The notes below the pieces were generated by a model. The model did no database searches and had not been told where the DNA came from. It saw only the letters and a list, made by a program, of their open reading frames with translations. This document shows, piece after piece, positions 7,422 to 57,352 of a stretch of DNA of 57,516 nucleotides. Source of the stretch: an uncultured Candidatus Berkelbacteria bacterium (GTDB lineage Bacteria > Patescibacteriota > UBA1384 > XYA2-FULL-43-10 > CAINNR01); contig CAINNR010000008.1 of the NCBI GenBank assembly GCA_903851235.1, positions 1 through 57,516 of the forward strand, in the 5' to 3' direction. Position numbers and translations under genes: made by a program. Positions within the stretch are counted from its first letter, which is position 1. Every line of letters starts with the position of its first letter.

Positions 7422-7940
7422 CTAATACTCCTCCGGATTATCGAAAGCCAGATTCGGTGGGTCGCAAGGTTTTCCCTGAAATTCTCGAACCTTATTTGTC
7501 CCACGCGAGTGTCCTCCGCGACGGCCCCACATCTGACGATCGCGAAGCGTTCTTGAAACCTCGAGATCGATGGCTTCATCTATTGCCGTCTCATCGCCGT
7601 GTGTCTCCAAGTAAATATCAACCATTTTCGCACAACTAACTCCTTGACTAACTCCCTCGAGACACATTTCAACCGCAACCTGTGCTTCCTTGGCGTTAAT
7701 ACCTCCGTTTACAATCAATTGGCGAACAATGCTTTTGGCATGACGAAAACGAAGTTGATGTTTTTTTGCTACGTCATCAAGTTCTTCACACTCAGCAAGC
7801 GAGATTCCAAGCTTTGTTAAACCTCGGATTGAAACGATCGGCGCATTGATTTGCAATGACAATCTTTCAATCGGCGAAACGGTTTGTGCTACAACAATTC
7901 CTGTTGTTTCTTTGGTCGGCGTCTCAGTCGGTTTTTTCAT
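7422..7940 (-). CDS. Hypothetical protein
   Basis: GAGGGAGG RBS before MKKPTE; promoter TTGACA-N17-TATAGT on the minus strand (8010-7982). Confidence 0.8.
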   Translation of the reverse strand: MKKPTETPTKETTGIVVAQTVSPIERLSLQINAPIVSIRGLTKLGISLAECEELDDVAKKHQLRFRHAKSIVRQLIVNGGINAKEAQVAVEMCLEGVSQGVSCAKMVDIYLETHGDETAIDEAIDLEVSRTLRDRQMWGRRGGHSRGTNKVREFQGKPCDPPNLAFDNPEEY

Positions 7941-8139: not shown

Positions 8140-8952
8140 TCAGAAGCCCATGGCTGCGGCCATAGACGCCTTTCTCAAGGTTGTCAGGTTCTCTGAGCAG
8201 TATGTGGCGGTGGTCCGGTTGAAGACCATCTCCGGATCGCTGGGGTGACCAGCAGCGTCAAAGTATGTCCACCCCTGCTCGGGTGCCTCCATCTTCATGT
8301 CGAGCATCAAGGCTGTGCGGTAGATCGCAGTCGTGACAGTAGCCACAGTCTTGATCTCGCCGAAGCTATTGCCCAGCTCTTCCATAACCCGGGCGATGAC
8401 ACCACGGTTGCCCGATTTGGGGTCGGGGTTGCATATCGTGACGATCCGGATGTCAGGGTATCTCTTCTTGATGACTCCGGCTGCGCCCTCACAGATCTTG
8501 ATCTCTTCATCAGCCTTAGGAGCGAAGTCCTCAACCGTGACTTGCTCGGCTTTGTTGGTTGGCCGGTTCGAGCCAGCGAAGACCAGAACCTTGGCGCCCG
8601 CCTTACCGCGAGCAATGGCTTCGGCCGCGTAGCAGGCGCGATGGAGCGGGGACCGACGAGCACCTCCAAGTGCGATGACCACATCCCAGTCGCCCTCGAG
8701 TCGCTTTTCGTTGAACATTCCCAACTCGCGTGCGAGGATCATTGTGGCGCGCCGCTGTTGCGGCTCCCACTGAGTCTCATCCTCCTCAAGCTGGAAGCGA
8801 ACCAGATCACGTCCGCCTTTGTAGCGCGGATTGGCCTGTTCACAGGCTTTCAGAAACGCTTCCGGCTCTGTGAACGGATCGGCATCAATGCCGATCTCTT
8901 CGAGGAACAACTGTGCAGCATCGCTTCTCAACAACAGATTGCCTGACAACAT
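8140..8952 (-). CDS. Hypothetical protein, possible distant YdcF/DUF218-like Rossmannoid fold; GC-rich
   Basis: AGGAGG RBS; DVVIALGGA, VFAGSNR and VATVTTAIY segments; promoter TTGACT-N17-TAGACT (9031-9003); fold call tentative. Confidence 0.7.
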   Translation of the reverse strand: MLSGNLLLRSDAAQLFLEEIGIDADPFTEPEAFLKACEQANPRYKGGRDLVRFQLEEDETQWEPQQRRATMILARELGMFNEKRLEGDWDVVIALGGARRSPLHRACYAAEAIARGKAGAKVLVFAGSNRPTNKAEQVTVEDFAPKADEEIKICEGAAGVIKKRYPDIRIVTICNPDPKSGNRGVIARVMEELGNSFGEIKTVATVTTAIYRTALMLDMKMEAPEQGWTYFDAAGHPSDPEMVFNRTTATYCSENLTTLRKASMAAAMGF

Positions 8953-9096
8953 GTTCGTTCGCCTCCTGGGATAGATGCTACCCTTTACTGGGTGCTGTTT
9001 GCAGTCTAGCACGAAGAGAACAAAAAGTCAATGGTTGAAGACGGAAATTTAAAATGATAAGATAAAAACAGAATAAGTAATTATGGATCAGAAATT

Positions 9097-10428
9097 ATGG
9101 ATAAAACAGAGAATAAGATCTCGAAACAAGTTCGGGATGACAAGTCGGGACTAATGGAAAAAATTGTCTCGCTTTGCAAGCGGCGGGGGTTTGTTTTTCA
9201 AGGTTCGGAAATTTATGGCGGAATGCAAGGTTTTTACGATTTCGGACCGCTTGGTGTTGCGATGAAAAAAAATCTTAAGGATTTGTGGTGGAATTGGATG
9301 ATAAACGATCATGAAGATATTGTCGGTATTGATGGCGCCATTATCACCAATCCAAAAGTTTGGGAGGCTTCCGGCCATATTAAAAGTTTTGTCGACCCAC
9401 TCTCTGAATGCAAAAAATGTCACCACCGGTTCAAAGCGGATGATCTTGATGGTGACAAATGTCCGGACTGTGGTGGTGAATTAACCGAGCCGCGAACTTA
9501 CAATATTTTGGTGCCAACGGAAATCGGCGTCATTGAGGGCGAAAAAGTTAAAGCCTATTTGCGTGGTGAAGCTTGTCAAACAATCTATCTTGATTACCAA
9601 AATGTCCTTGACTCCAGCCGGCTGAAAATCCCATTTGGAATTATCCAAATCGGTAAAGCTTTCCGAAACGAGATTACTCCCGGCAATTTTCTTTATCGCC
9701 AGCGTGAATTTGAACAGTGGGACTTGCAATGGTTTTGCCATCCAAGTGAAATGCAAAAATGGTTTGATTATTGGAAAGCTGAACGGATGGGTTGGTTTAA
9801 ATCCTATTTTAGGCAGCCGGAAAAACTTGGCTTTTATAAGCATGAAAAGTTGGCTCACTATGCCAAAGAGGCTTATGATATACAATACGACGGTAAAGAA
9901 ATCGAAGGCATCCATTGGCGGGGCGATTGGGATTTGTCTCAACACAGTAAATTTTCCGGCAAAGAGTTGACCTATACCCCTGAAGGCGCTCCAAAATTTA
10001 CTCCGAATATTGTTGAAACCTCCGGTGGCGTTGATCGTATGTTTTTGTTTTTGATGGTTGATGCTTACGACGAATCCGATGGAACCGATGGTCGGGAAAA
10101 GGGGGAAATTACTTTGCGACTAAACCCGAAGATTGCGCCGATTAAATGTGCGGTTTTCCCATTGGTGAAAAAAGACGGTGTCGGTGATAAGGCTCGCGAG
10201 GTATATAAATCGATCAAGAGCTGTTTGCCATCTTACTACGATGAATCCGGTTCAATCGGTCGCCGGTATCGTCGACAGGATGAAATCGGTACGCCTTTTT
10301 GTGTCACAATTGATTATCAAACACTAGAAGATCAAACCGTCACTATTCGCGAGCGAGATTTAATGGAACAGGAACGGATCAAAATTTCGGAGATCAGTAA
10401 CTATGTTTTTGGCAAGATAAATAGCTAG
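9097..10428 (+). CDS. glyQS: Glycine--tRNA ligase, homodimeric (alpha2) type
   Basis: CKRRGFVF...EIYGG, YDFGPLG, GKAFRNEITP, REFEQ, GSIGRRYRRQDEIGTPFCVTID. Confidence 0.97.
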   Translation: MDKTENKISKQVRDDKSGLMEKIVSLCKRRGFVFQGSEIYGGMQGFYDFGPLGVAMKKNLKDLWWNWMINDHEDIVGIDGAIITNPKVWEASGHIKSFVDPLSECKKCHHRFKADDLDGDKCPDCGGELTEPRTYNILVPTEIGVIEGEKVKAYLRGEACQTIYLDYQNVLDSSRLKIPFGIIQIGKAFRNEITPGNFLYRQREFEQWDLQWFCHPSEMQKWFDYWKAERMGWFKSYFRQPEKLGFYKHEKLAHYAKEAYDIQYDGKEIEGIHWRGDWDLSQHSKFSGKELTYTPEGAPKFTPNIVETSGGVDRMFLFLMVDAYDESDGTDGREKGEITLRLNPKIAPIKCAVFPLVKKDGVGDKAREVYKSIKSCLPSYYDESGSIGRRYRRQDEIGTPFCVTIDYQTLEDQTVTIRERDLMEQERIKISEISNYVFGKINS

Positions 10429-10532
10429 AAGGATAGAGTCAAAAAGCCGCCAGAAATGGTGGTTTTTTTATTGATAATATTTTGGTTTTATGGTATATTC
10501 TATCTATTCTGAACAGAAAGGTCGTGGTAGCT

Positions 10533-11306
10533 GTGAGCGCAGCCGTTGTACAGGTCGGAGCGAGTTCTAATGTGTTTGTAAAATACTCGCTTTTACTTTC
10601 AGTCCTGGCTAATTTCGAAGATGTTGTTAGTACGCAATCGTTTGGCGGAATTGAACTTTCACAGACCTTTGTTCGAGCCGGTGTACCGAAATATCAGAAT
10701 TTGGAGCTGGGCCTTTCGAAATCTAGTGTTTATCACTTGGATCAGCAGAGCAATCTGTGGGAAGGGCCGTATCAATATGAGCACATTTCCATTCGTTCCT
10801 GCACCGTCGGTGAAGTTAACGGTTGCCCCGGAATCATCGGAGAGTCACGGATAAGCTTTGCCGGTGGAAGAATGTCACCTGTGGGAGTTACGGTTTGGCA
10901 GCTGGCCAACTCTTTTGCGCCGCGATCGTTTGGATCAATTGCCTCTGTTTGTCCAAGCGATGTCTATGTAAGGAAGCTACAGTTTTTGATGAATTTTTGT
11001 ATCGAAGGACATCTTTCAGGTTATGCAACTTACGCGGTTATCAATTTGTTCCTTAATCGTGGCCGGAATAATCAGAAGATCTTACTTGTCCGCGATGATC
11101 AGCTGGAACAGTATTTCAAGACTCAAGACGATGCTCTTGGAAATTACGAAACCCCTTCGGTCGTTCGTGGGAAAATCTGTTCTGCTTTCGGTGATCTGCC
11201 AAGTCGAAAATTGGTTATTGCTGGCGAATGTGATAGCTGTTTGCGAATGGCGAAAATAATTATTCCAGACCACTACTTGATTTCCGGTTTGGCACCCCTA
11301 TCTTGA
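10533..11306 (+). CDS. Hypothetical protein, tandem paralog 1 of 3
   Basis: TTGATA-N17-TATATT promoter (10471-10499), GAAAGG RBS, GTG start; ends YLISGLAPLS. Confidence 0.75.
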   Translation: MSAAVVQVGASSNVFVKYSLLLSVLANFEDVVSTQSFGGIELSQTFVRAGVPKYQNLELGLSKSSVYHLDQQSNLWEGPYQYEHISIRSCTVGEVNGCPGIIGESRISFAGGRMSPVGVTVWQLANSFAPRSFGSIASVCPSDVYVRKLQFLMNFCIEGHLSGYATYAVINLFLNRGRNNQKILLVRDDQLEQYFKTQDDALGNYETPSVVRGKICSAFGDLPSRKLVIAGECDSCLRMAKIIIPDHYLISGLAPLS

Positions 11307-11341
11307 ATATCCTCTTTCACAACCCCACCGGTTTGGTGGGC

Positions 11342-11415
11342 TTTTTTGTTGATATATACTTTAACATCTGCTAAATTTAATTCATCCTATGAAAGGGAGT
11401 GGTCCGGATGGGACG
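11342..11415 (+). repeat. Leader repeat copy A (terminator tail, promoter, RBS, first codons)
   Basis: 67 of 74 nt identical, ungapped, to 12245-12318. Confidence 0.92.
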
Positions 11416-12208
11416 AGATAGGCCGCGAGTGATTTCCTGCGCGTCGTCGGCGGCTAATCGATTCGCTTTGGTCGCGTCGGCTGTTGTTGGCTTCGATTCA
11501 ATTGCAAAGGTTGAACCGGTTGTCGGTAACATTCGGGTTAGACAGGTCTATAATCCGGACGGGCGTTTTACTTATGACCGGCTTCAGTTGGTTATCGTCG
11601 GTGATGTTAGAGTTCATCACCGTCAAGGTATCGAGGATTCAGACTGGAGATTGGGGTCAAGAATTCTTCATGGGATTACAATCGACCTTGATCATGTTGA
11701 GTTTCTCCCCACGCTTTGTCCGGGAGTGGTCGGCAAGGACACAGAAGACAGATCGGTATTTTGCGACTGGACCGGCATTAAGGTTTGGGAATTGATTAGC
11801 CGGTTGTCGAGAAGCAATGTCCCGGCGCCAATGGTTGTTGGCGCAAATTCCACTAATGAATCAAAACTGTCACTGCTGGCTTTACTTGCCAATGGCAATT
11901 ATCAGGAGCTCTGTGGCCATCAAGTCGATTTGAATTTTGACTGCAACACCGGTCCGGCGGTAGTTCAGCTTGTTCAGTCGGGGAAGTCTGAGGAATACAT
12001 GGAAACTCACGATTATAAGTTGCTTTCTTCGTTATACAGCACATCGAGAGTTAATGGAGTGATCGAAGGCGTGGTTGGGAACGAACTACATCGATATCTG
12101 ACTGTTCGTGGCAGCTGCGATGGGCACGGTCACGATGAATTGTATATGTCAGTTTTGGATGCCAATTTGATTTCCGGCTTGGTCAAATTGAAAAAACCAA
12201 AGTATTAA
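11408..12208 (+). CDS. Hypothetical protein, tandem paralog 2 of 3
   Basis: TTGATA-N17-TAAATT promoter, GAAAGGGAG RBS; ends NLISGLVKLKKPKY. Confidence 0.8.
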   Translation: MGRDRPRVISCASSAANRFALVASAVVGFDSIAKVEPVVGNIRVRQVYNPDGRFTYDRLQLVIVGDVRVHHRQGIEDSDWRLGSRILHGITIDLDHVEFLPTLCPGVVGKDTEDRSVFCDWTGIKVWELISRLSRSNVPAPMVVGANSTNESKLSLLALLANGNYQELCGHQVDLNFDCNTGPAVVQLVQSGKSEEYMETHDYKLLSSLYSTSRVNGVIEGVVGNELHRYLTVRGSCDGHGHDELYMSVLDANLISGLVKLKKPKY

Positions 12209-12244
12209 ATAGTCAGAACCATTTGCTCGCCGACTTGGCGGGCA

Positions 12245-12318
12245 TTTTTTATTGATATATACTTATAGATCTGTTAAATTTAATTCATCCTACGAAAGGG
12301 AGTGGTCCAGATGGGACG
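12245..12318 (+). repeat. Leader repeat copy B
   Basis: 67 of 74 nt identical to 11342-11415. Confidence 0.92.
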
Positions 12319-13096
12319 GAAGATCGTTGTTTCGCCGGAGTCGTCGGCTGAAGTAAAATGGGCATTTATTGTTTCTCTGATCAAACCTTTGGACAATTTC
12401 AGCCATTTGTATCGTTGCGGAGCCGGCATTAACATTCATGCCACTGTTGGGCCGGCGATTGATGAAAGTTTCGAGCCAATTTCTGCTCCAACGTTTTCCA
12501 ATGTTAAGCTTCGGCTGAAATGGGATAATCCAACTTTATTGATGCGAACGACCGGCAGAACGACAACAACCGAGCGTTTGTCTGAACTTTCATCTGATTA
12601 TCTGGAGTTGGTGGCGCCGAGATTGGGGATTGACGCGGTTTTGAATACCAGACAGTCTGAATATAGTTATCGACTCGATTTGCAGGCGATTATCCAGGGA
12701 CTGTTTTACGGTGAGGGTTACAACAAGGCAATGGGTAAGGTTAGTCCTGACTCAGATCCTTTGGCTAAACTTGGATTCATTTATTCCTGTTTGCGTTGTT
12801 TCGCCCCTGATGGTAGAGCGTGTTTGCCGACGATTTCCGGATTAATAATCCGCCTGAAATGGCCCGGAGGCGGGATTTATCACTGGATTGGCAGAAGAAT
12901 TTCGTCAAATTCAATGAAACAGTATTTGAGCGACATTGTCATGGGAGAAGTTGACGACTTCTATTTCTACAAGCCTTTCCATAATCCTTTGGACGCTAAG
13001 CGATTGTTAGTGGTAACCGGATCCAGTACCGGTAAAACACTAATTCTCAATATTGCGATGCGACATATTGTCTCAGGATTGATCAAAATGGATTAA
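12311..13096 (+). CDS. Hypothetical protein, tandem paralog 3 of 3
   Basis: Same leader as paralog 2; ends HIVSGLIKMD; terminator hairpin plus T-tract follows. Confidence 0.8.
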   Translation: MGRKIVVSPESSAEVKWAFIVSLIKPLDNFSHLYRCGAGINIHATVGPAIDESFEPISAPTFSNVKLRLKWDNPTLLMRTTGRTTTTERLSELSSDYLELVAPRLGIDAVLNTRQSEYSYRLDLQAIIQGLFYGEGYNKAMGKVSPDSDPLAKLGFIYSCLRCFAPDGRACLPTISGLIIRLKWPGGGIYHWIGRRISSNSMKQYLSDIVMGEVDDFYFYKPFHNPLDAKRLLVVTGSSTGKTLILNIAMRHIVSGLIKMD

Positions 13097-13197
13097 GCCA
13101 TCATCCTATTTCCGCAAGCTCCGAAATATCGGGGCTTTTTTTGCATAAAAAACCCGCAAAGCCATGGTGGCTGCGGGCGGTACGATCGCTGTTTTTC

Positions 13198-13250
13198 AGG
13201 AATCTGATTCGATCCAGAATAGTCTGCCTTCACCCCAACCGGTATTTTCT
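13198..13250. repeat. 53-bp target-site duplication, left copy
   Basis: Identical to 14850-14902 (AGGAATCTGATT...GGTATTTTCT). Confidence 0.95.
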
Positions 13251-14849
13251 CCCGACTTGTATCATTAGTGTGACAAATTAAGTTTATCCACAATCTCCAT
13301 GGTTTCTTCCGGAATAGCTGAGCGCATTATTGTTATCTCGTCTGTCATTGTGTTTAAAATTTTGGCATCGGTTACTTTTTTGAATTGTTGAATGATTTTC
13401 TTGATTGATTTATTGGTTTTAAGTTCCATGTACCTACAGATACTCAGGGCGATAAAACAAATGAGCACGTGAGCCTCGATTGTCTGTTTTTTGAAGTGAT
13501 GGATTGGTCTCATTTGAAGATCGCTTTTGGCAATTCGAAAAGCATGTTCAACATGCCACAAGTCGTGATATTGTTGGATAATCATTTGATTATCAACTTT
13601 TCCCAAATTAGTGTAATAACCTTTAATACCAAGAAGGCTTTTTGTTTTCTTGATCAGTGTCTCATTCAGTTTTAAACTTGGTTTTTTGCTCTTGCCTGTG
13701 TTCTGAAGGAACTTAGCTCGTTTGATTTTACCGGGTTCTTTAAGTAAAGATTCGGCTTTGACGATCTGTTTTTCCATCTCTCGTTTATCCTTTTTGTAGC
13801 GGGTTAGAGAGAAACTTACAACCAGACTACCCAGTTTGGTTCTGATCTTCAGGTTGGTCCCATCTTTTCTTCCAAGCTCTCTGGAGACTCTCTCAATCGT
13901 AGCTGTCGGCAGGTTGGCCAGCCTAGCCCCAACAATGTAATGAAGTCGTTTACTTTTCAGTTCAGTAACATTGTCCCTACTGATCATTGCTGCATCGGCG
14001 ACCACAGTAAGGTTCTTGACTTGGTGATGCTGTTTAAAAGCAAGGATAACCGGAATGATCGTCTTACCCTCAAACTTGTTGCCTTCAAAGATTTCATAAG
14101 CTATTGGAAAGCCTTTATCATTTACAACCAACCCGATCAGTATTTGGGGCTGGTTTGATTTGCCGTCCTTAGAGAATCCGGGCTTTCGAAGTTCATCCTC
14201 ACCAAAGGCTTCGAAATACAGGCTGGTAACATCGTAAAAAACCAGGCTAAAGTTAAAACCCAGTTCATTCTTGGCGATATTAGTTACTGCGTCGATAACA
14301 GTATTTTTAGAGCCAACAAAATATTCCAGATGACGATAGAATTCAAGACGTGAATATTTAATACCGAACAACTCCTCCAGGAGTTCAAAGGAGCGCAGTT
14401 TAGAAGCCGGTTCAATGATTCGAATCAGGGCCAAGTCAAGAAGCATCTTGTCCTTGATCTTCATTAGGTCAAATCGCGATAACAGTTGATTTAGACATTC
14501 ATAGATAAAATTGTAACTAACTCCCAAATACTGACACTTACTCAGCGAGAACTGGTTTGATTCAGTAAATTTTAAGACCGGGAAAAGCTCGAACTGTTTC
14601 GATTCTTTTTTAATCCAGACCCGAGCAGAATCTTTTAAGACTTTTAGTTCATCTTCATTATGAGCACTACCAATATGTTTAACTACTATCAGTCTGCGAT
14701 ACTCATATCTAACAACTTGAACGGCAGTTGCTTTTGAGCTGGTTTTTGTTGTCCTAATATGAAACATGCTTCTAGTATGACAAAAACCCTATTTTGAATC
14801 AAATCACGCTCAAAGTTGTTAAGAGACCCCCAAAATGATACAAGTCGGG
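13251..14849 (-). mobile_element. IS1634-family insertion sequence
   Basis: Perfect 16-bp terminal inverted repeats CCCGACTTGTATCATT (13251-13266 / 14834-14849), long flanking direct repeat, one DDE transposase ORF. Confidence 0.93.
13265..14767 (-). CDS. IS1634-family DDE transposase
   Basis: VKHIGSAH N-terminus, FYDVTSLYFE, GFSKDGK, VVADAAM, WHVEHAFRIAKSDL. Confidence 0.93.
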   Translation of the reverse strand: MFHIRTTKTSSKATAVQVVRYEYRRLIVVKHIGSAHNEDELKVLKDSARVWIKKESKQFELFPVLKFTESNQFSLSKCQYLGVSYNFIYECLNQLLSRFDLMKIKDKMLLDLALIRIIEPASKLRSFELLEELFGIKYSRLEFYRHLEYFVGSKNTVIDAVTNIAKNELGFNFSLVFYDVTSLYFEAFGEDELRKPGFSKDGKSNQPQILIGLVVNDKGFPIAYEIFEGNKFEGKTIIPVILAFKQHHQVKNLTVVADAAMISRDNVTELKSKRLHYIVGARLANLPTATIERVSRELGRKDGTNLKIRTKLGSLVVSFSLTRYKKDKREMEKQIVKAESLLKEPGKIKRAKFLQNTGKSKKPSLKLNETLIKKTKSLLGIKGYYTNLGKVDNQMIIQQYHDLWHVEHAFRIAKSDLQMRPIHHFKKQTIEAHVLICFIALSICRYMELKTNKSIKKIIQQFKKVTDAKILNTMTDEITIMRSAIPEETMEIVDKLNLSH

Positions 14850-15345
14850 AGGAATCTGATTCGATCCAGAATAGTCTGCCTTCACCCCAACCGGTATTTT
14901 CTGTTGGATTTCGTGGCACGGACTTTTGATCGCAATCATGGTCGTAAATCGGCTCTAGATCCGCGGCTGGAGTTGTTCGATGTGTTGAAGGGTGAGTAAA
15001 TGTAACAGTGTCGTCACTCCAAATGATTAGGTTACCATTTTCACCCAGCCAAATGGCAACTATGCCAGTAAGTGGGAATTCGCGATACTTTACGGACTTT
15101 CTTGTTCTGCCACCAAATGTCTCTTGCCATGGAATCGCTTCGTATGGCGAAAACCACAATGTGTGGCCAGTTTCTTCCAATGCCTGCTGAACAATGTCGG
15201 CTGTCAACTCGTAACTGCCGAAACAAAGTGCATTGGGGTGAAGATCATCCAGCTCAATCGAATGTTGTCCGCATTCTGGGACCAAGCCACAGCGAATGCA
15301 AGTCAATTTACCGGTTTTCGCAGCCGTCCACCAGTCGTGTACCAT
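14689..15345 (-). CDS. Hypothetical protein whose stop codon was removed by the IS insertion (165 native aa plus 53 IS-derived aa)
   Basis: AAGGAG RBS before MVHDWW; CIRC...C motif; original ...ESDS-TGA end preserved at 13196-13250. Confidence 0.75.
   Translation of the reverse strand: MVHDWWTAAKTGKLTCIRCGLVPECGQHSIELDDLHPNALCFGSYELTADIVQQALEETGHTLWFSPYEAIPWQETFGGRTRKSVKYREFPLTGIVAIWLGENGNLIIWSDDTVTFTHPSTHRTTPAADLEPIYDHDCDQKSVPRNPTENTGWGEGRLFWIESDSSRLVSFWGSLNNFERDLIQNRVFVILEACFILGQQKPAQKQLPFKLLDMSIAD
14850..14902. repeat. 53-bp target-site duplication, right copy
   Basis: Identical to 13198-13250. Confidence 0.95.
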
Positions 15346-15533
15346 TCGGATACATCTCCTTTCGGCGTCTGTTTGCAGACTATACCGTATCAATACAAAA
15401 CAACAAACGCAAGATACCGCGACAATTTTTTCTAAAAAATATCCATTACAGAACTGGAAAATTGTTTGGCTGATATATATTAATGCTAATTGATGGGAAA
15501 TTATATTGACCAATGAATCAAATAGACATAAAA

Positions 15534-15558
15534 TGGGAAAAGGTGGGAAGAAGTGGGA
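15534..15558 (+). promoter_or_regulatory. MraZ operator: three TGGGA direct repeats with 10-bp period
   Basis: TGGGA at 15534, 15544 and 15554 upstream of mraZ; matches the known TGGGN MraZ-binding repeats. Confidence 0.85.
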
Positions 15559-15706
15559 TAGAAAGAATCGAAATTATGTTAAAACCAAAACACAAAAGAA
15601 TAAAAGTGGTGAACAAAAGCAAGTTGGTTACTTTAAAAATTTGTTTCGTTTGAATACGAGGGAATTAGTTTGAAAATTTTAAATTTTAAATATTAAATTT
15701 AAAAAC

Positions 15707-16138
15707 ATGTTCATCGGCGAATATAGCCACACAATCGATGAAAAAGGTCGTGTGTCGATTCCCTCAAAATTTCGTGGGGAGTTAGCTTCGGGTTGTGTTG
15801 TTACTCGCGGGTTGGATAAATGCCTTTGGGTTTATCCGATGGGTGAGTGGCAAAACTTGGCGGAAAAAATCGCCGAATTGCCAATTACCCAGAAAAATGC
15901 CAGAAGCTTTTCAAGGTTGATGTTGGCCGGCGCATCTGATGTTGAAACCGACCGAATCGGTCGGATAAACTTGCCAGCGTATCTGCGAGAATATGCGGCG
16001 ATAAAAAAAGAGGTGGTTATTGTCGGCATTTACAATCGAATCGAAATTTGGCCGGCCGATGTTTGGGCGAACTTTAAAAATGAGATGGAAGAAAACAGTT
16101 CGGAAGTGGCAGAGAGTTTATCGGAAATTGGATTCTGA
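15707..16138 (+). CDS. mraZ: Transcriptional regulator MraZ
   Basis: MFIGEYSHTIDEKGRVSIP, DRIGRINLP, IEIW. Confidence 0.97.
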   Translation: MFIGEYSHTIDEKGRVSIPSKFRGELASGCVVTRGLDKCLWVYPMGEWQNLAEKIAELPITQKNARSFSRLMLAGASDVETDRIGRINLPAYLREYAAIKKEVVIVGIYNRIEIWPADVWANFKNEMEENSSEVAESLSEIGF

Positions 16139-50904: not shown

Positions 50905-51552
50905 ATGTTTCTATTGAATTTGATTTCACAACCGGTTTTTGCCATCTCCGCCATTGTCGGCCTGCTTTTGGCGATTACCTTTCACGAATTCGCCCATGCT
51001 TGGATGGCGAATTATTTAGGCGATCCGACAGCAAAAAATTTAGGTCGGCTGACACTAAACCCGTTTAAACACTTGGATCCGTTGGGGACGCTGTTTTTGC
51101 TCGTTGCCGGCTTTGGCTGGGGAAAACCGGTGCCGTACAATCCGAGTAATTTAAAATCCGACGCCGATGAAGTCAAAGTCGCACTCGCCGGAGTTACCGC
51201 TAACTTAATTTTGGCGCTAATTTTGGGCATTCCGCTGCGGATTGCGACGGCGATGCATGTCGCAATCGACTCAAATCTTTGGCTCTTGGCAGTGGAAATT
51301 TTGCTTGAAATGAACTTGGTGTTGATCGCCTTCAATATCATTCCGATTCCACCACTTGACGGCTCGAAGTTGATTTTCCCTTTCATTAGCTTTGATGCCA
51401 GAGTAACCTTTGAACGTTTTGGCCCGATAATACTATTAGGACTGATTATCGCCAGTAATTTTTTCGGCTCGCCGTTTTTGGTCAGCTTTATGGAGCCGAT
51501 TATTCGAGTTCTGTCCTTTGTGGCCAAAGGAACTTATACCGCGATCTTCTAG
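50905..51552 (+). CDS. Site-2 protease (peptidase M50)
   Basis: HEFAH, GRLTLNP, GWGKPVP, FNIIPIPPLDG. Confidence 0.95.
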   Translation: MFLLNLISQPVFAISAIVGLLLAITFHEFAHAWMANYLGDPTAKNLGRLTLNPFKHLDPLGTLFLLVAGFGWGKPVPYNPSNLKSDADEVKVALAGVTANLILALILGIPLRIATAMHVAIDSNLWLLAVEILLEMNLVLIAFNIIPIPPLDGSKLIFPFISFDARVTFERFGPIILLGLIIASNFFGSPFLVSFMEPIIRVLSFVAKGTYTAIF

Positions 51553-51614
51553 ATCGCAATTTTCAATTATATATATATATTTCCAAATTTGGGCGGTTTT
51601 TTTGAATAAAAAAA

Positions 51615-51645
51615 AGCCGGTGGCCACAATGTCGTGGTCACCGGT
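51615..51645 (-). terminator. CCGGTGGCCAC/GTGGTCACCGG hairpin with A-tract on its left
   Basis: Terminator of the minus-strand gene; resembles the AGCGGTGGCC motif. Confidence 0.7.
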
Positions 51646-51679
51646 GTGTTGCGTGTGTTGCGTGGGGTTTGGGCCCAGG

Positions 51680-52408
51680 CTACTTCTTGGGCAGGGTCAG
51701 GCCGTACTTGGCGGCCAGCGTACTGGCCGAGGCCGCGAAGGCCTGCCTGCGCATCTCCGGAATGATGGTCTTGGCCTTGATGGCCTCGACCCGGGCACTC
51801 AGTGCCCCGGTCGCCGACTTCACCTTGTCGACGTCATCGTTCAGCAGCCCGGCCAAGATGGCCTGTGCCGCCTCCCGCGACTCCTTGTCGGCCTGCTTCG
51901 TGTCGACCTCGGTCCAGGCGGCCAGGGCCGCGTCGGCCATGGCCTCAACACTGTTGGTGAAGCCCGAGATCTTGTCCGCCGCGATGGTCTCGGCCTTGGG
52001 CCGAGAGACAACTGCGTGGTAGTAGCCCGAGATCCAGTCCGTCGTGTTGTCCTTCCCCGCCGACTGGCGAGAGACGCTGACGCGGATGATCATGCCCGGC
52101 ACGGGCGTCACATCCTGGCGGTCCATCCCGCCCGTGGTGAAGGGGATGATGAAGACCGACTCACCCTCAATCGGGTGTCCCTCACCGTCGTTGGTGTCGC
52201 CGCGGGTATCGACCCCGACGTACTCAACAACGGTTCCGAAGCCGATCGGCTTCTGGTTCCTGTCAACCCGAACCTTGTCGAACTCGACAAGTGCGATGAA
52301 GCGCTTGCGCGGGGCGTTGAAATCCTCGACATCGAAGTTCTCCTCAGTTGCAGGAGTCTCCTCATCTGCAACTCCGGCTGCGACCAATCCAGCGGCTAAG
52401 GTCGTCAT
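51680..52408 (-). CDS. GC-rich hypothetical protein, possible OB/cold-shock-like domain plus helical C-terminus
   Basis: TTGACA-N17-TACAAT promoter (52498-52470), GAAAGGA RBS; KPIGFGTV and SVFIIPF resemble RNP1/RNP2. Confidence 0.7.
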   Translation of the reverse strand: MTTLAAGLVAAGVADEETPATEENFDVEDFNAPRKRFIALVEFDKVRVDRNQKPIGFGTVVEYVGVDTRGDTNDGEGHPIEGESVFIIPFTTGGMDRQDVTPVPGMIIRVSVSRQSAGKDNTTDWISGYYHAVVSRPKAETIAADKISGFTNSVEAMADAALAAWTEVDTKQADKESREAAQAILAGLLNDDVDKVKSATGALSARVEAIKAKTIIPEMRRQAFAASASTLAAKYGLTLPKK

Positions 52409-56741: not shown

Positions 56742-56817
56742 GCCCAGATAGCTCAGTTGGTAGAGCAACTCCATGGTAAGGAGTAGGTCGTCGGTTCAAG
56801 TCCGATTCTGGGCTCCA
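56742..56817 (+). tRNA. tRNA-Thr(GGT)
   Basis: Cloverleaf GCCCAGA...ATGGTAA...GGTTCAAGTCC...TCTGGGCTCCA. Confidence 0.96.
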
Positions 56818-56837
56818 TGATAAATTTAAGATTATTT

Positions 56838-56923
56838 GCTGGGATAGCGAAGTGGTCAAACGCATTAGACTGTAAATCTAACGGCTTACGCCTTCGTAGG
56901 TTCGAGTCCTACTCCCAGCACCA
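56838..56923 (+). tRNA. tRNA-Tyr(GTA)
   Basis: Cloverleaf with long variable arm, loop CTGTAAA, CCA end. Confidence 0.96.
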
Positions 56924-56925
56924 TT

Positions 56926-57001
56926 GCCGATATAGCTCAGTTGGTAGAGCAACACTTTTGTAAAGTGAAGGTCGTGGGTTCGAATCCCTCTATCGGCTCC
57001 A
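56926..57001 (+). tRNA. tRNA-Thr(TGT)
   Basis: GCCGATA acceptor stem, loop TTTGTAA, GGTTCGAATCC, CCA end. Confidence 0.94.
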
Positions 57002-57060
57002 TACCACCAAAATTGGCTCGGAAACACTATGTTTAAAGAAAAAACTAAGAAAGGATATTT

Positions 57061-57222
57061 ATGGCAAAAGACGCACGGACGATTGTAACTTTGGAGTGTG
57101 AAGTCTGCAAAGAGCGAAATTATCAGACCGAAAAAAACACCAAACTTCAAAAAGAACGGTTGCAACTTTCAAAATATTGCAAACGATGCAAAAAACAAAC
57201 TTTGCACAAAGAAGCGAAATAG
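57061..57222 (+). CDS. rpmG: 50S ribosomal protein L33 (zinc-binding form); not in the supplied ORF track
   Basis: Manual translation [26 protein letters not shown]...[18 protein letters not shown]. Confidence 0.96.
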
Positions 57223-57278
57223 TGGACAGAGATATTTCATAGAGATTATCAAGGATCAAAATATCTGGGTTTTAGCAT

Positions 57279-57352
57279 AGGAGCTTAATTTAAAGGTAAA
57301 ATACCTCTCTCCAAAAGAGGCTATAGGGGTTCGATTCCTCTAGCTCCTGCCA
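57279..57352 (+). tRNA. tRNA-Trp(CCA)
   Basis: AGGAGCT/AGCTCCT acceptor stem, CCTCT-CTCCAAA-AGAGG anticodon arm, CCA end. Confidence 0.94.

Follow-up and report, generated by a model that had tools for sequence, protein, structure and literature searches.

A tandem array of three genes lies in the window, that is, the whole 57,516-nucleotide stretch of DNA from an uncultured Candidatus Berkelbacteria bacterium that was analysed; the array genes and their signals are all encoded on the + strand. Upstream of the first unit lies glyS (9097-10428), which is closed by a hairpin and T-tract at approximately 10447-10469, an element read by eye to which the terminator scan gave no score; equivalent glyS terminators are also present in relatives. 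Unit 1 opens with the promoter TTGATA-N17-TATATT carrying a TG extension (10471-10499; 10/12 matches in the promoter scan), which is followed by gene 1 (10533-11306; P0004, 257 aa, C-type, GTG start), a public gene call that matches the family HMM at E=1e-79, and by a terminator at 11324-11347 (scored span in the terminator scan, 11324-11340). In unit 2 a promoter of the form TTGATA-N17-TAAATT with TG extension (11349-11377; promoter scan) precedes gene 2 (11408-12208; P0001, 266 aa, A-type, ATG start), identified by public gene call and family search, and a terminator at 12224-12250 (scored span 12224-12244). The promoter of unit 3 at 12252-12280, found by the same scan, is likewise TTGATA-N17-TAAATT with TG extension; gene 3 (12311-13096; P0002, 261 aa, B-type, ATG start) was identified by family and profile-profile searches, and its terminator at 13116-13142 (scored span 13116-13137) ends the array.

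The -35 elements of the three units start at 10471, 11349 and 12252, and the resulting spacings of 878 and 903 bp agree with the unit sizes given in an earlier note on this DNA. The order of signals described there, namely a GC-rich hairpin with T-tract, TTGATA-N17-TG-extended -10, GAAAGG(GA)GTGGTn and start codon, was likewise recovered. The start codons at 10533, 11408 and 12311 are those used by public gene calls on identical contigs; the earlier starts at 10482, 11399 and 12302 suggested by an ORF lister were rejected, as the public calls place the starts further downstream. Across all genomes, a promoter and a ribosome-binding site of its own stand in front of every family gene examined, and a terminator behind each one whose 3′ flank falls inside its contig. 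The three ORFs are real genes, each transcribed separately according to these predicted signals. Their codon usage and GC content are normal for the host genome, and signs of phage or mobile cargo were not found, neither as atypical composition nor as viral relatives in IMG/VR or PHROGs; by these measures the trio are resident genes of this genome.

The products of genes 1 and 2 share 24% identity over 263 aa (E=3e-6), the similarity of gene 3 to either of them is marginal by BLASTP, and hhalign aligns the gene 3 (B) type with the other types at a probability of 88.9% (E=2.4e-6, 164 aligned columns). Judged by these alignments, the three proteins are true, very distant homologues of one family, whose paralogue bodies share 15-22% amino-acid identity. 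An exhaustive HMM search among 1.84 billion (1.84e9) proteins provided nine representatives of this family at 50% identity. The other members surfaced only through this search; word-indexed searching with 3- and 9-sequence profiles returned P0003 and, otherwise, only the proteins of the window itself. The nine representatives agree in length and motifs, and the scattered anchor motifs that the earlier note had picked out in the three proteins coincide with conserved columns of the nine-member alignment. No family match was found in Pfam (where none of the nine members matched), NCBIfam, PADLOC, PHROGs or PDB sequences, the only named member (TSC93950.1) is a 'hypothetical protein', and a literature search for the family or the locus yielded nothing relevant; the first impression that the proteins belong to no recognisable family was correct, and the family is undescribed. 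Pattern scans for the A-type and B-type in GTDB genomes, JGI metagenomes and IMG/VR revealed no relatives, P0008 as query in genome and metagenome scans returned only the already known MAG, and the family HMM detected no copies outside the array in the 57.5-kb window.

An AlphaFold model of the gene 2 protein, built with the 9-sequence alignment, reached a pLDDT of 82.3 and a pTM of 0.83, and includes a confidently modelled N-terminal helix (pLDDT 93, residues 11-20). The best TM-score of this model against the PDB in Foldseek was about 0.2, and a first, poorer model (pLDDT 67.6) gave TM-scores of <=0.22 against the PDB and BFVD; BFVD was covered with the poorer model, and the statement that there is no structural match refers to the PDB. 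The family members are soluble proteins of ~260 aa with a predicted mixed alpha/beta fold. The invariant residues are exclusively small or hydrophobic (S13, L175, G217, G235 and S256-G257-L258), conservation is highest over the first 30 residues and in the C-terminal ISGL helix, and the 3-8 cysteines per protein are not conserved in position.

Sequence change in the family proteins is about 7-10 times faster than in GlyRS and MraZ on either side. Between genomes L010 and L012 the C-terminus of GlyRS is 90% identical (dN 0.07), compared with 35% for the family protein (dN 0.68); between the window and L012, GlyRS and MraZ are each 83% identical (dN 0.11-0.13), compared with a family dN of 1.0. 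In all pairs dS is saturated (at least 1.4) or undefined, with a crude ceiling for omega of ~0.4, so that positive selection is indistinguishable from relaxed constraint.

Against this divergence stands the DNA at the 5′ ends of genes 2 and 3. A leader block that comprises the T-tract, -35, -10, 5′UTR, ribosome-binding site and the first 8 nt of the ORF occurs at 11342-11415 and again at 12245-12318, where 67/74 positions are identical without a gap; beyond the block, in-register identity over the remaining ORF is 26%, which is chance level. This collapse of identity inside the ORF is as the earlier note described it. Its statement that the leaders of the array are near-identical holds for genes 2 and 3 and fails for gene 1, whose leader is only ~60% identical to both. 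The 57-nt core of the leader occurs exactly twice in the window versus 0 times expected from shuffles, and further copies were sought there and not found. Exact matches to the -35 element TTGATATATACT lie solely before family genes, of the A as well as the B type, in three genomes; with one mismatch allowed, the minus strand of the window has a single further site (7610-7621).

A second multi-copy genome, L001, carries the same A-type-then-B-type pair, and here, too, the two leaders are near-identical to each other and unlike those of the window, with a shared block of roughly 60 nt that includes one 1-nt indel. Within genomes, leader identity amounts to 89% (genes 2 and 3 of the window) and 81% (A and B of L001), compared with 57-69% for leaders of the same type between genomes; gene bodies cluster by type between genomes, whereas leaders cluster by genome. 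This discordance argues for short-tract gene conversion of promoter and leader, and the edges of the tracts are sharp, the window tract extending from the T-tract to codon 3 and the L001 tract from the -10 to codon 6. We infer, with good support, that such conversion has probably occurred independently in two genomes, the two multi-copy genomes on which the comparison rests, L001 being represented by one 1.4-kb contig with 25 codons of the second gene. The earlier proposal that the regulatory ends are homogenised while coding interiors diverge is hereby sustained beyond what ordinary conservation would give, and L001 behaves likewise.

The leaders could also be alike without any copying of DNA, if a common operator, promoter and initiation region were held under selection by one trans-acting regulator, with regulator and site drifting together between species. 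Part of the 5′ end is indeed under selection, given that the AGG-N1-2-GTG motif behind the ribosome-binding site and the N-terminal stretch of 30 residues are kept across genomes, and a common operator has been retained for co-regulation in the Borrelia erp paralogues (PMC9112904). Selection of this kind sits poorly with near-total identity over a 74-nt block that includes spacer and 5′UTR positions varying freely between genomes, with sharp tract edges placed differently in the window and L001, and with gene 1 carrying a different leader in the same cell; we consider a purely selective origin rather unlikely.

Under gene conversion, the array would have arisen by an old tandem duplication, because the A-then-B order is older than the split from L001. 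Later, repeated conversion tracts of 60-75 bp would have replaced the promoter, 5′UTR and initial codons of a paralogue with the corresponding sequence of the adjacent one, and the paralogues would thereby retain the same strong, autonomous expression signals and remain co-expressed. The leader of gene 1 has escaped homogenisation and forms a counterpoint to conversion.

Several other candidates for the nature of the leader were tried and rejected. A structured RNA leader or riboswitch is at odds with a 5′UTR of about 25 nt, for which Rfam gives no match. A mobile promoter element or MITE is at odds with the lack of flanking repeats and with L007 and L008, which have the same -35 at the orthologous site. 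Control by MraZ was considered on account of the resemblance between ATGGGA at the starts of genes 2 and 3 and TGGGA boxes, three of which are located at 15533-15565; the leaders have a single box with the wrong spacing, and the leaders of L001, L007 and L008 have none.

All genomes in which the family has been found belong to one narrow Berkelbacteria-like (CPR/Patescibacteria) group. The arrangement glyS, family gene or genes, mraZ is seen in L008 and L011-L014; in L001, L007 and L010 the glyS flank alone is visible, and in L009 the mraZ flank alone, because these contigs are short. Judged by the flanks, the slot between glyS and mraZ is always the family's place. Between the array and mraZ the window additionally contains an IS and an ORF on the minus strand; GlyRS, the IS transposase, MraZ and a PBP make up the neighbourhood, together with ORFs that lack Pfam domains. 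Across related genomes, the majority of which were located via the family itself and hence form a biased sample, the slot holds 0, 1, at least 2, or 3 copies (by type: none, B only, A only, D only, A+B, or C+A+B), in keeping with the variable content that the earlier note had proposed. An empty slot with no remnant is found in three relatives whose MraZ is 86-91% identical; their GlyRS is 53-60% identical to that of the window, and these genomes may therefore be less related than MraZ implies.

A position that is always directly upstream of the mraZ/dcw genes and in the same orientation raises the possibility of a lineage-specific accessory of division or envelope that heads the dcw cluster and evolves fast only through weak constraint, as an omega not demonstrably >1 would allow. 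The family is missing, however, from the three relatives, whose mraZ-dcw cluster is intact, it has its own terminator, and a MraZ-box promoter region (in the window also the IS and the minus-strand ORF) separates it from mraZ; with no known division protein matched, we regard a division role as very unlikely.

Variation of the slot between genomes contrasts with constancy within the strain. All eleven records, which come from at least ten other assemblies, show the order gene 1-gene 2-gene 3, and those seven contigs that were read as DNA are base-identical to the window bar one substitution in total. The earlier note had envisaged a variable repertoire exchanged by recombination at conserved ends, whose members would be swapped, gained or lost via leader and terminal repeats and give rise to strain-level cassette diversity. 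The 74-nt leader repeat and a 16-nt 3′ repeat shared by genes 1 and 2, TTGATTTCCGGYTTGG, are direct repeats long enough for recombination, and slot copy number and paralogue type do vary among related genomes. Set against this are the fixed order on every contig of the strain, the single substitution, the absence of a direct gene 1-gene 3 junction from all contigs, the mere two occurrences of the leader and the confinement of the family to the array within the window. Nor did Tandem Repeats Finder, a repeat scan and the annotation of neighbouring genes provide any exchange machinery: silent cassettes, a recombinase, promoter-flanking inverted repeats or other invertible elements, and internal repeats were not found, the sole recombinase nearby being the DDE transposase of the independent IS. 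Exchange of cassettes is thus not borne out, and we hold it to be distinctly unlikely.

With respect to function, the predicted features are few. In no family protein does a 19-residue stretch reach 1.6 on the Kyte-Doolittle scale, and signal peptides, transmembrane segments and pilin motifs are absent; a candidate signal peptide with lipobox (VISC in gene 2) was rejected on the grounds that it has no hydrophobic core and that its cysteine is unconserved. The lack of any catalytic-looking conserved residue and of an export signal hints at a protein that acts in the cytoplasm as a binder or scaffold, has no enzymatic activity and can change its surface freely. That the family is patchily distributed, differs in copy number and diverges quickly would, tentatively, fit an accessory role in conflict (with phage, competitor or host) better than a core role. 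The PADLOC-DB v2 HMMs left the three genes unmatched and produced one chance-level match to the family (E=0.043, 1/9 members). With regard to the candidate roles named in the earlier note, immunity proteins, anti-phage factors or host-interaction effectors, neither a cognate toxin among the recognisable neighbours nor a match to an immunity family was found, and the same is true of a partner gene, a defence-family match and a phage relative.

CPR bacteria depend on host contact, and the proteins might be factors that an epibiotic cell exports or displays on its surface to interact with the host, using a non-classical secretion signal at one of the conserved termini. Conservation does peak in the first 30 residues and the ISGL helix, and surface proteins typically evolve fast. 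Export is contradicted by the missing signal peptide, lipobox with hydrophobic core, transmembrane segment and pilin motif, by the packing of both termini into the fold, where they are modelled with high confidence, and by the many unconserved cysteines, which suit a cytoplasmic protein; we deem it highly improbable.

Taken together, we lean, with slightly better than even confidence, towards a reading in which an undescribed family arose at this locus by old duplication, underwent conversion of its leaders and encodes what is, as a best guess, an accessory, conflict-type binding protein. A more far-reaching version, in which a family with a new fold forms a co-regulated, diversifying repertoire in biological conflict, for example by recognising or neutralising factors of phage or host inside the cell, and the copied leader keeps each new paralogue equally highly expressed, is conceivable and on balance doubtful.

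Genomes of CPR/Patescibacteria are tiny, about half of their genes are 'hypothetical', and the determinants of their interactions with hosts and phages are largely unknown. The locus offers a testable case, with a clade-restricted family whose fold is predicted with confidence and unmatched in the PDB, which has 0-3 copies in one fixed chromosomal slot and whose evolution is about ten times faster than that of its neighbours. It also provides a compact natural example in which conversion would be confined to ~70 bp of promoter-leader while the coding bodies have diverged almost past recognition, and bears on how bacteria maintain co-expression of new duplicates. Should the conflict-repertoire reading prove true, ultra-small episymbiotic bacteria would have a so far undescribed accessory system specific to them; should no function come to light, the array will be a well-described orphan family only.

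Among known systems, the erp genes of Borrelia burgdorferi (ospE/ospF/elp, with their 'upstream homology box') are divergent paralogues with a highly conserved promoter/operator and N-terminal coding segment, and are all co-expressed owing to the conserved promoter/operator (PMC9112904). In the present family, two of the three window paralogues and both L001 paralogues share their promoter-leader, and the N-terminus is the most conserved part. The Erp proteins differ in being lipoproteins of the cell surface whose genes lie on cp32 prophages behind a ~145-bp operator, to which BpaB, BpuR and EbfC bind, whereas the window genes are chromosomal and tandem, have neither a lipoprotein signal nor a conserved lipobox cysteine, and conserve as DNA the promoter and roughly 25-nt 5′UTR only; Foldseek comparison with ErpC and OspE was not significant (TM 0.13-0.15, probability <=0.14).

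The vsp, vlp and vsa loci of Mycoplasma are tandem lipoprotein paralogues with internal tandem repeats that switch by site-specific inversion or homopolymer slippage. Near-identical 5′ regions that comprise promoter, ribosome-binding site and first codons, divergent remainders, tandem clusters and reduced genomes are common to both; the window array differs in that a lipobox, tandem repeats, an invertible element and a recombinase are all missing, and its three promoters are all intact. Orphan-immunity arrays and defence 'hotspots' resemble the locus in occupying a fixed core-gene slot whose contents vary among close relatives (here 0-3 copies), and in their small, fast-evolving cytoplasmic proteins without enzymatic signature. 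Unlike in those systems, no toxin, effector, integrase or known defence match lies nearby, and the occupants of the slot all belong to one family instead of a mixture of systems. Finally, gene conversion homogenises the whole gene in tufA/tufB and rRNA operons, and paralogous DNA is, as here, more alike within than between genomes; in the present array, homogenisation is limited to a regulatory and 5′ segment of 60-75 bp, ahead of bodies that retain 15-22% amino-acid identity.

The three genes that follow glyS in the window belong to an undescribed, clade-restricted, fast-evolving but real protein family, which occupies a fixed yet variably filled slot on the chromosome. They lie on the plus strand directly downstream of glyS (9097-10428, with GlyRS domains), as g1 (10533-11306), g2 (11408-12208) and g3 (12311-13096). 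Their starts (GTG 10533, ATG 11408 and ATG 12311) are taken as real since each is preceded by a ribosome-binding site, promoters lie upstream and public calls on identical contigs agree. Upstream of each gene, a GC-rich hairpin and T-tract are followed by a promoter of the form TTGATA-N17-TGn(TATATT/TAAATT); successive -35 elements are 878 and 903 bp apart, the unit spacing reported in the earlier note, and each gene has its own terminator downstream. The window holds three predicted autonomous transcription units of one family, whose codon usage and GC content are ordinary for the host genome, which argues for long residence.

Judged from their sequences, the three products are distant paralogues. 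The g1 and g2 proteins align end to end with 24% identity (E=3e-6); BLASTP similarity of the g3 protein is limited to the extreme N- and C-termini. A g3-type profile, built independently from the g3 protein (P0002) and its relative P0009, matches the profile of all other types over 164 aligned columns (hhalign probability 88.9%, E=2.4e-6). Common to all members are length, an N-terminal motif [IV][IV]S..SSA..[KR][FW][AS][LF][IV], the anchors GIxVWxL, KLxFL and RxLx[IV]xGxC, and a C-terminal [IV][IL]SGL. The HMM search proposed in the earlier note, run exhaustively over 1.84 billion cluster representatives, yields nine proteins in total, of 257-275 aa and matching end to end; the sole named one is 'hypothetical protein Athens101428_473' (TSC93950.1). 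None of the nine matches Pfam, NCBIfam, PADLOC or PHROGs, nor do PDB sequences match family members, which bears out the first impression that no family could be recognised; the protein family is new to databases. Structure prediction, also proposed there, delivered a model without a counterpart in the PDB. Supplied with the alignment of all nine sequences, AlphaFold predicts with confidence (pLDDT 82.3, pTM 0.83; all five models 79-82) a fold made up of a helix at the N-terminus, three long beta-hairpin strands and a C-terminal half of alpha/beta type, for which Foldseek finds no match in the PDB (best TM ~0.2); a search of BFVD with an earlier, poorer model returned nothing meaningful. Family proteins lack both a signal peptide and a transmembrane segment, have pI values between 5.2 and 9.1 and contain 3-8 non-conserved cysteines each. 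Invariance is confined to S13, L175, G217, G235 and S256-G257-L258, a set that does not look like an active site.

The leaders (promoter, 5'UTR and first codons) tell a different story from the gene bodies, which fall into types A to D; g1 is C-type, g2 A-type and g3 B-type. The leaders of g2 (11342-11415) and g3 (12245-12318) are identical at 67 of 74 positions without gaps, and in-register identity beyond them drops to 26%; the leader core occurs twice in the window and never in shuffled sequence. The near-identity once ascribed to all three leaders holds for this pair but not for g1, whose leader is only ~60% identical to the other two; in all else the observation of the earlier note stands confirmed. 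The pattern recurs in another contig, L001, where an A-type and a B-type gene are likewise adjacent and their leaders nearly identical to one another, in a block that spans the -10 element to codon 6 with one 1-nt indel and differs in sequence from the g2/g3 leader. When ten leaders are compared pair by pair, g2/g3 (89%), the L001 pair (81%) and the orthologous D-type pair of L010 and L012 (79%) stand out as high, and same-type leaders from different genomes reach only 57-69%; gene bodies, in opposite fashion, cluster by type. Since leaders are alike within a genome and bodies alike by type, these comparisons indicate that short-tract gene conversion has probably acted on promoter, 5'UTR and first codons, independently in two lineages, much as the idea of homogenised regulatory ends around a diversified interior had it. 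The exact -35 element TTGATATATACT is found only before family genes, namely g2, g3, an A-type gene (L007) and a B-type gene (L008), which argues that the promoter moves with the family and that the body type behind it differs between genomes; a search that tolerates one mismatch adds just one site in the window (7610-7621, minus strand). A shared regulatory site under selection may contribute to leader identity, since cross-genome conservation is seen in the N-terminal peptide and in an AGG-N1-2-GTG motif; however, selection fails to account for the match at those positions of the spacer and UTR that differ freely from one genome to another, and gene conversion remains the preferred reading. 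Near the other end of the genes, the DNA encoding LISGL in g1 and g2 (11277-11292 and 12167-12182) is identical at 15 of 16 positions, including synonymous sites, which may mark another converted tract, a very short one, or be due to chance.

All family members found lie after glyS and before mraZ, as far as each contig extends. L011-L014 carry one D-type gene each, L010 a D-type gene after glyS on a contig that stops before any next gene or mraZ, L008 one B-type gene, L009 one A-type gene before mraZ, L007 an A-type gene that follows glyS and whose downstream neighbour lies beyond the contig, L001 an A-type then a B-type gene, and the window C, A and B. Each of the family genes examined comes with a promoter and ribosome-binding site of its own, and with a terminator wherever the 3' flank is on the contig. 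In three relatives, with MraZ 91%, 89% and 86% identical to the window's, glyS is followed directly by the mraZ promoter region, and a six-frame HMM search of these empty slots finds neither a family gene nor a remnant. The copy-number comparison urged earlier thus returned a variable slot (0, 1, at least 2, or 3 copies) and an accessory family. In the empty-slot genomes GlyRS shares only 53-60% identity with that of the window (9097-10428), compared with 83% for L012, so that GlyRS and MraZ conflict over which of L018, L023, L026, L008 and L012 is closest, a disagreement suggestive of two GlyRS lineages or of recombination at the locus.

The family evolves 7-10 times faster than the genes on either side. 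In the comparison of L010 with L012, the C-terminus of GlyRS is 90% identical (dN 0.07) and the family proteins 35% (dN 0.68); in that of the window with L012, identity is 83% for GlyRS and MraZ (dN 0.11-0.13) and 24% for g2 and P0008 (dN 1.0). The proposed dN/dS comparison gave a high dN, but dS is saturated throughout, which leaves positive selection and weak constraint indistinguishable; the crude upper bound on omega is ~0.4. In g2 the variable stretches are residues 61-90, 136-150, 181-195 and 241-255, and the first 30 residues are best conserved.

The further proposal that cassettes are exchanged at the conserved ends finds no direct support. The g1-g2-g3 order is identical on all eleven records, which stem from ten or more other assemblies, the seven read as DNA matching the window with one substitution in all; the array has no internal tandem repeats, inverted repeats around promoters or silent copies, and no recombinase besides the transposase of an unrelated insertion sequence. 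The 74-nt repeat could in principle mediate gain or loss of a unit; among the contigs examined, none joins g1 to g3. Searches for a toxin partner, a defence-family match or a phage relative found none.

The window is a chromosomal segment (GC ~42%) of a small-genome CPR/Patescibacteria bacterium, whose nearest named relatives in public databases carry the label Candidatus Berkelbacteria; one MAG that has this locus is labelled Saccharibacteria. Its first features are the 3' portion of a 23S rRNA gene, in which a group I intron lies, and a 5S gene after it (1584-1700); the 23S match ends at model position 2651, where the intron (445-692) begins, and the downstream exon is absent from the scan results (1-1700). 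Downstream of the array, mraZ (15707-16138) heads a cell-division and cell-wall cluster and is preceded at 15533-15565 by three TGGGA boxes with 10-nt spacing (ATGGGAaaagGTGGGAagaaGTGGGA), the classic MraZ operator layout, also present in L018, L023 and L026. The insertion sequence (13251-14849; DDE_Tnp_1 transposase at 13265-14767, minus strand) ends in 16-bp inverted repeats (CCCGACTTGTATCATT), lies between the two perfect copies of a 53-bp direct repeat (13198-13250 and 14850-14902) and disrupts a minus-strand ORF (start 15513; 221 aa expected at the empty site) at its 3' end. L005 and L006, from other samples, join 13250 directly to 14903, so the insertion would be polymorphic, or of recent date, unless assembly collapsed the repeat. 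Two ORFs, 8140-9012 (minus strand) and 51518-52399, have a GC content of 0.58-0.60, against ~42% for the genome, and deviant codon usage; the one tested has no Pfam domain, and relatives carry a minus-strand gene of 267-273 aa at the same place upstream of glyS as the former. Four tRNA genes cluster at the window end (56742-57349).

We infer, with good support, that the array would have arisen by an old tandem duplication, after which repeated conversion of promoter and leader would hold the paralogues under the same strong predicted expression signals. The product might conceivably be a binding protein of the cytoplasm that has no enzymatic activity and serves an accessory, conflict-type role, as suggested by its patchy presence, changes in copy number, fast divergence at the surface and the lack of any catalytic or export signature; the array would be of far greater interest if a part in interactions with phages or hosts were demonstrated. 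The nearest analogue in logic is the erp family of Borrelia, in which divergent, co-expressed paralogues have a common promoter/operator and N-terminal segment (PMC9112904), but the window family differs from it in each feature tested, namely lipoprotein signal, prophage location and homology. The evolutionary behaviour of the array is a variation on a kind already known; what is new is the protein family.
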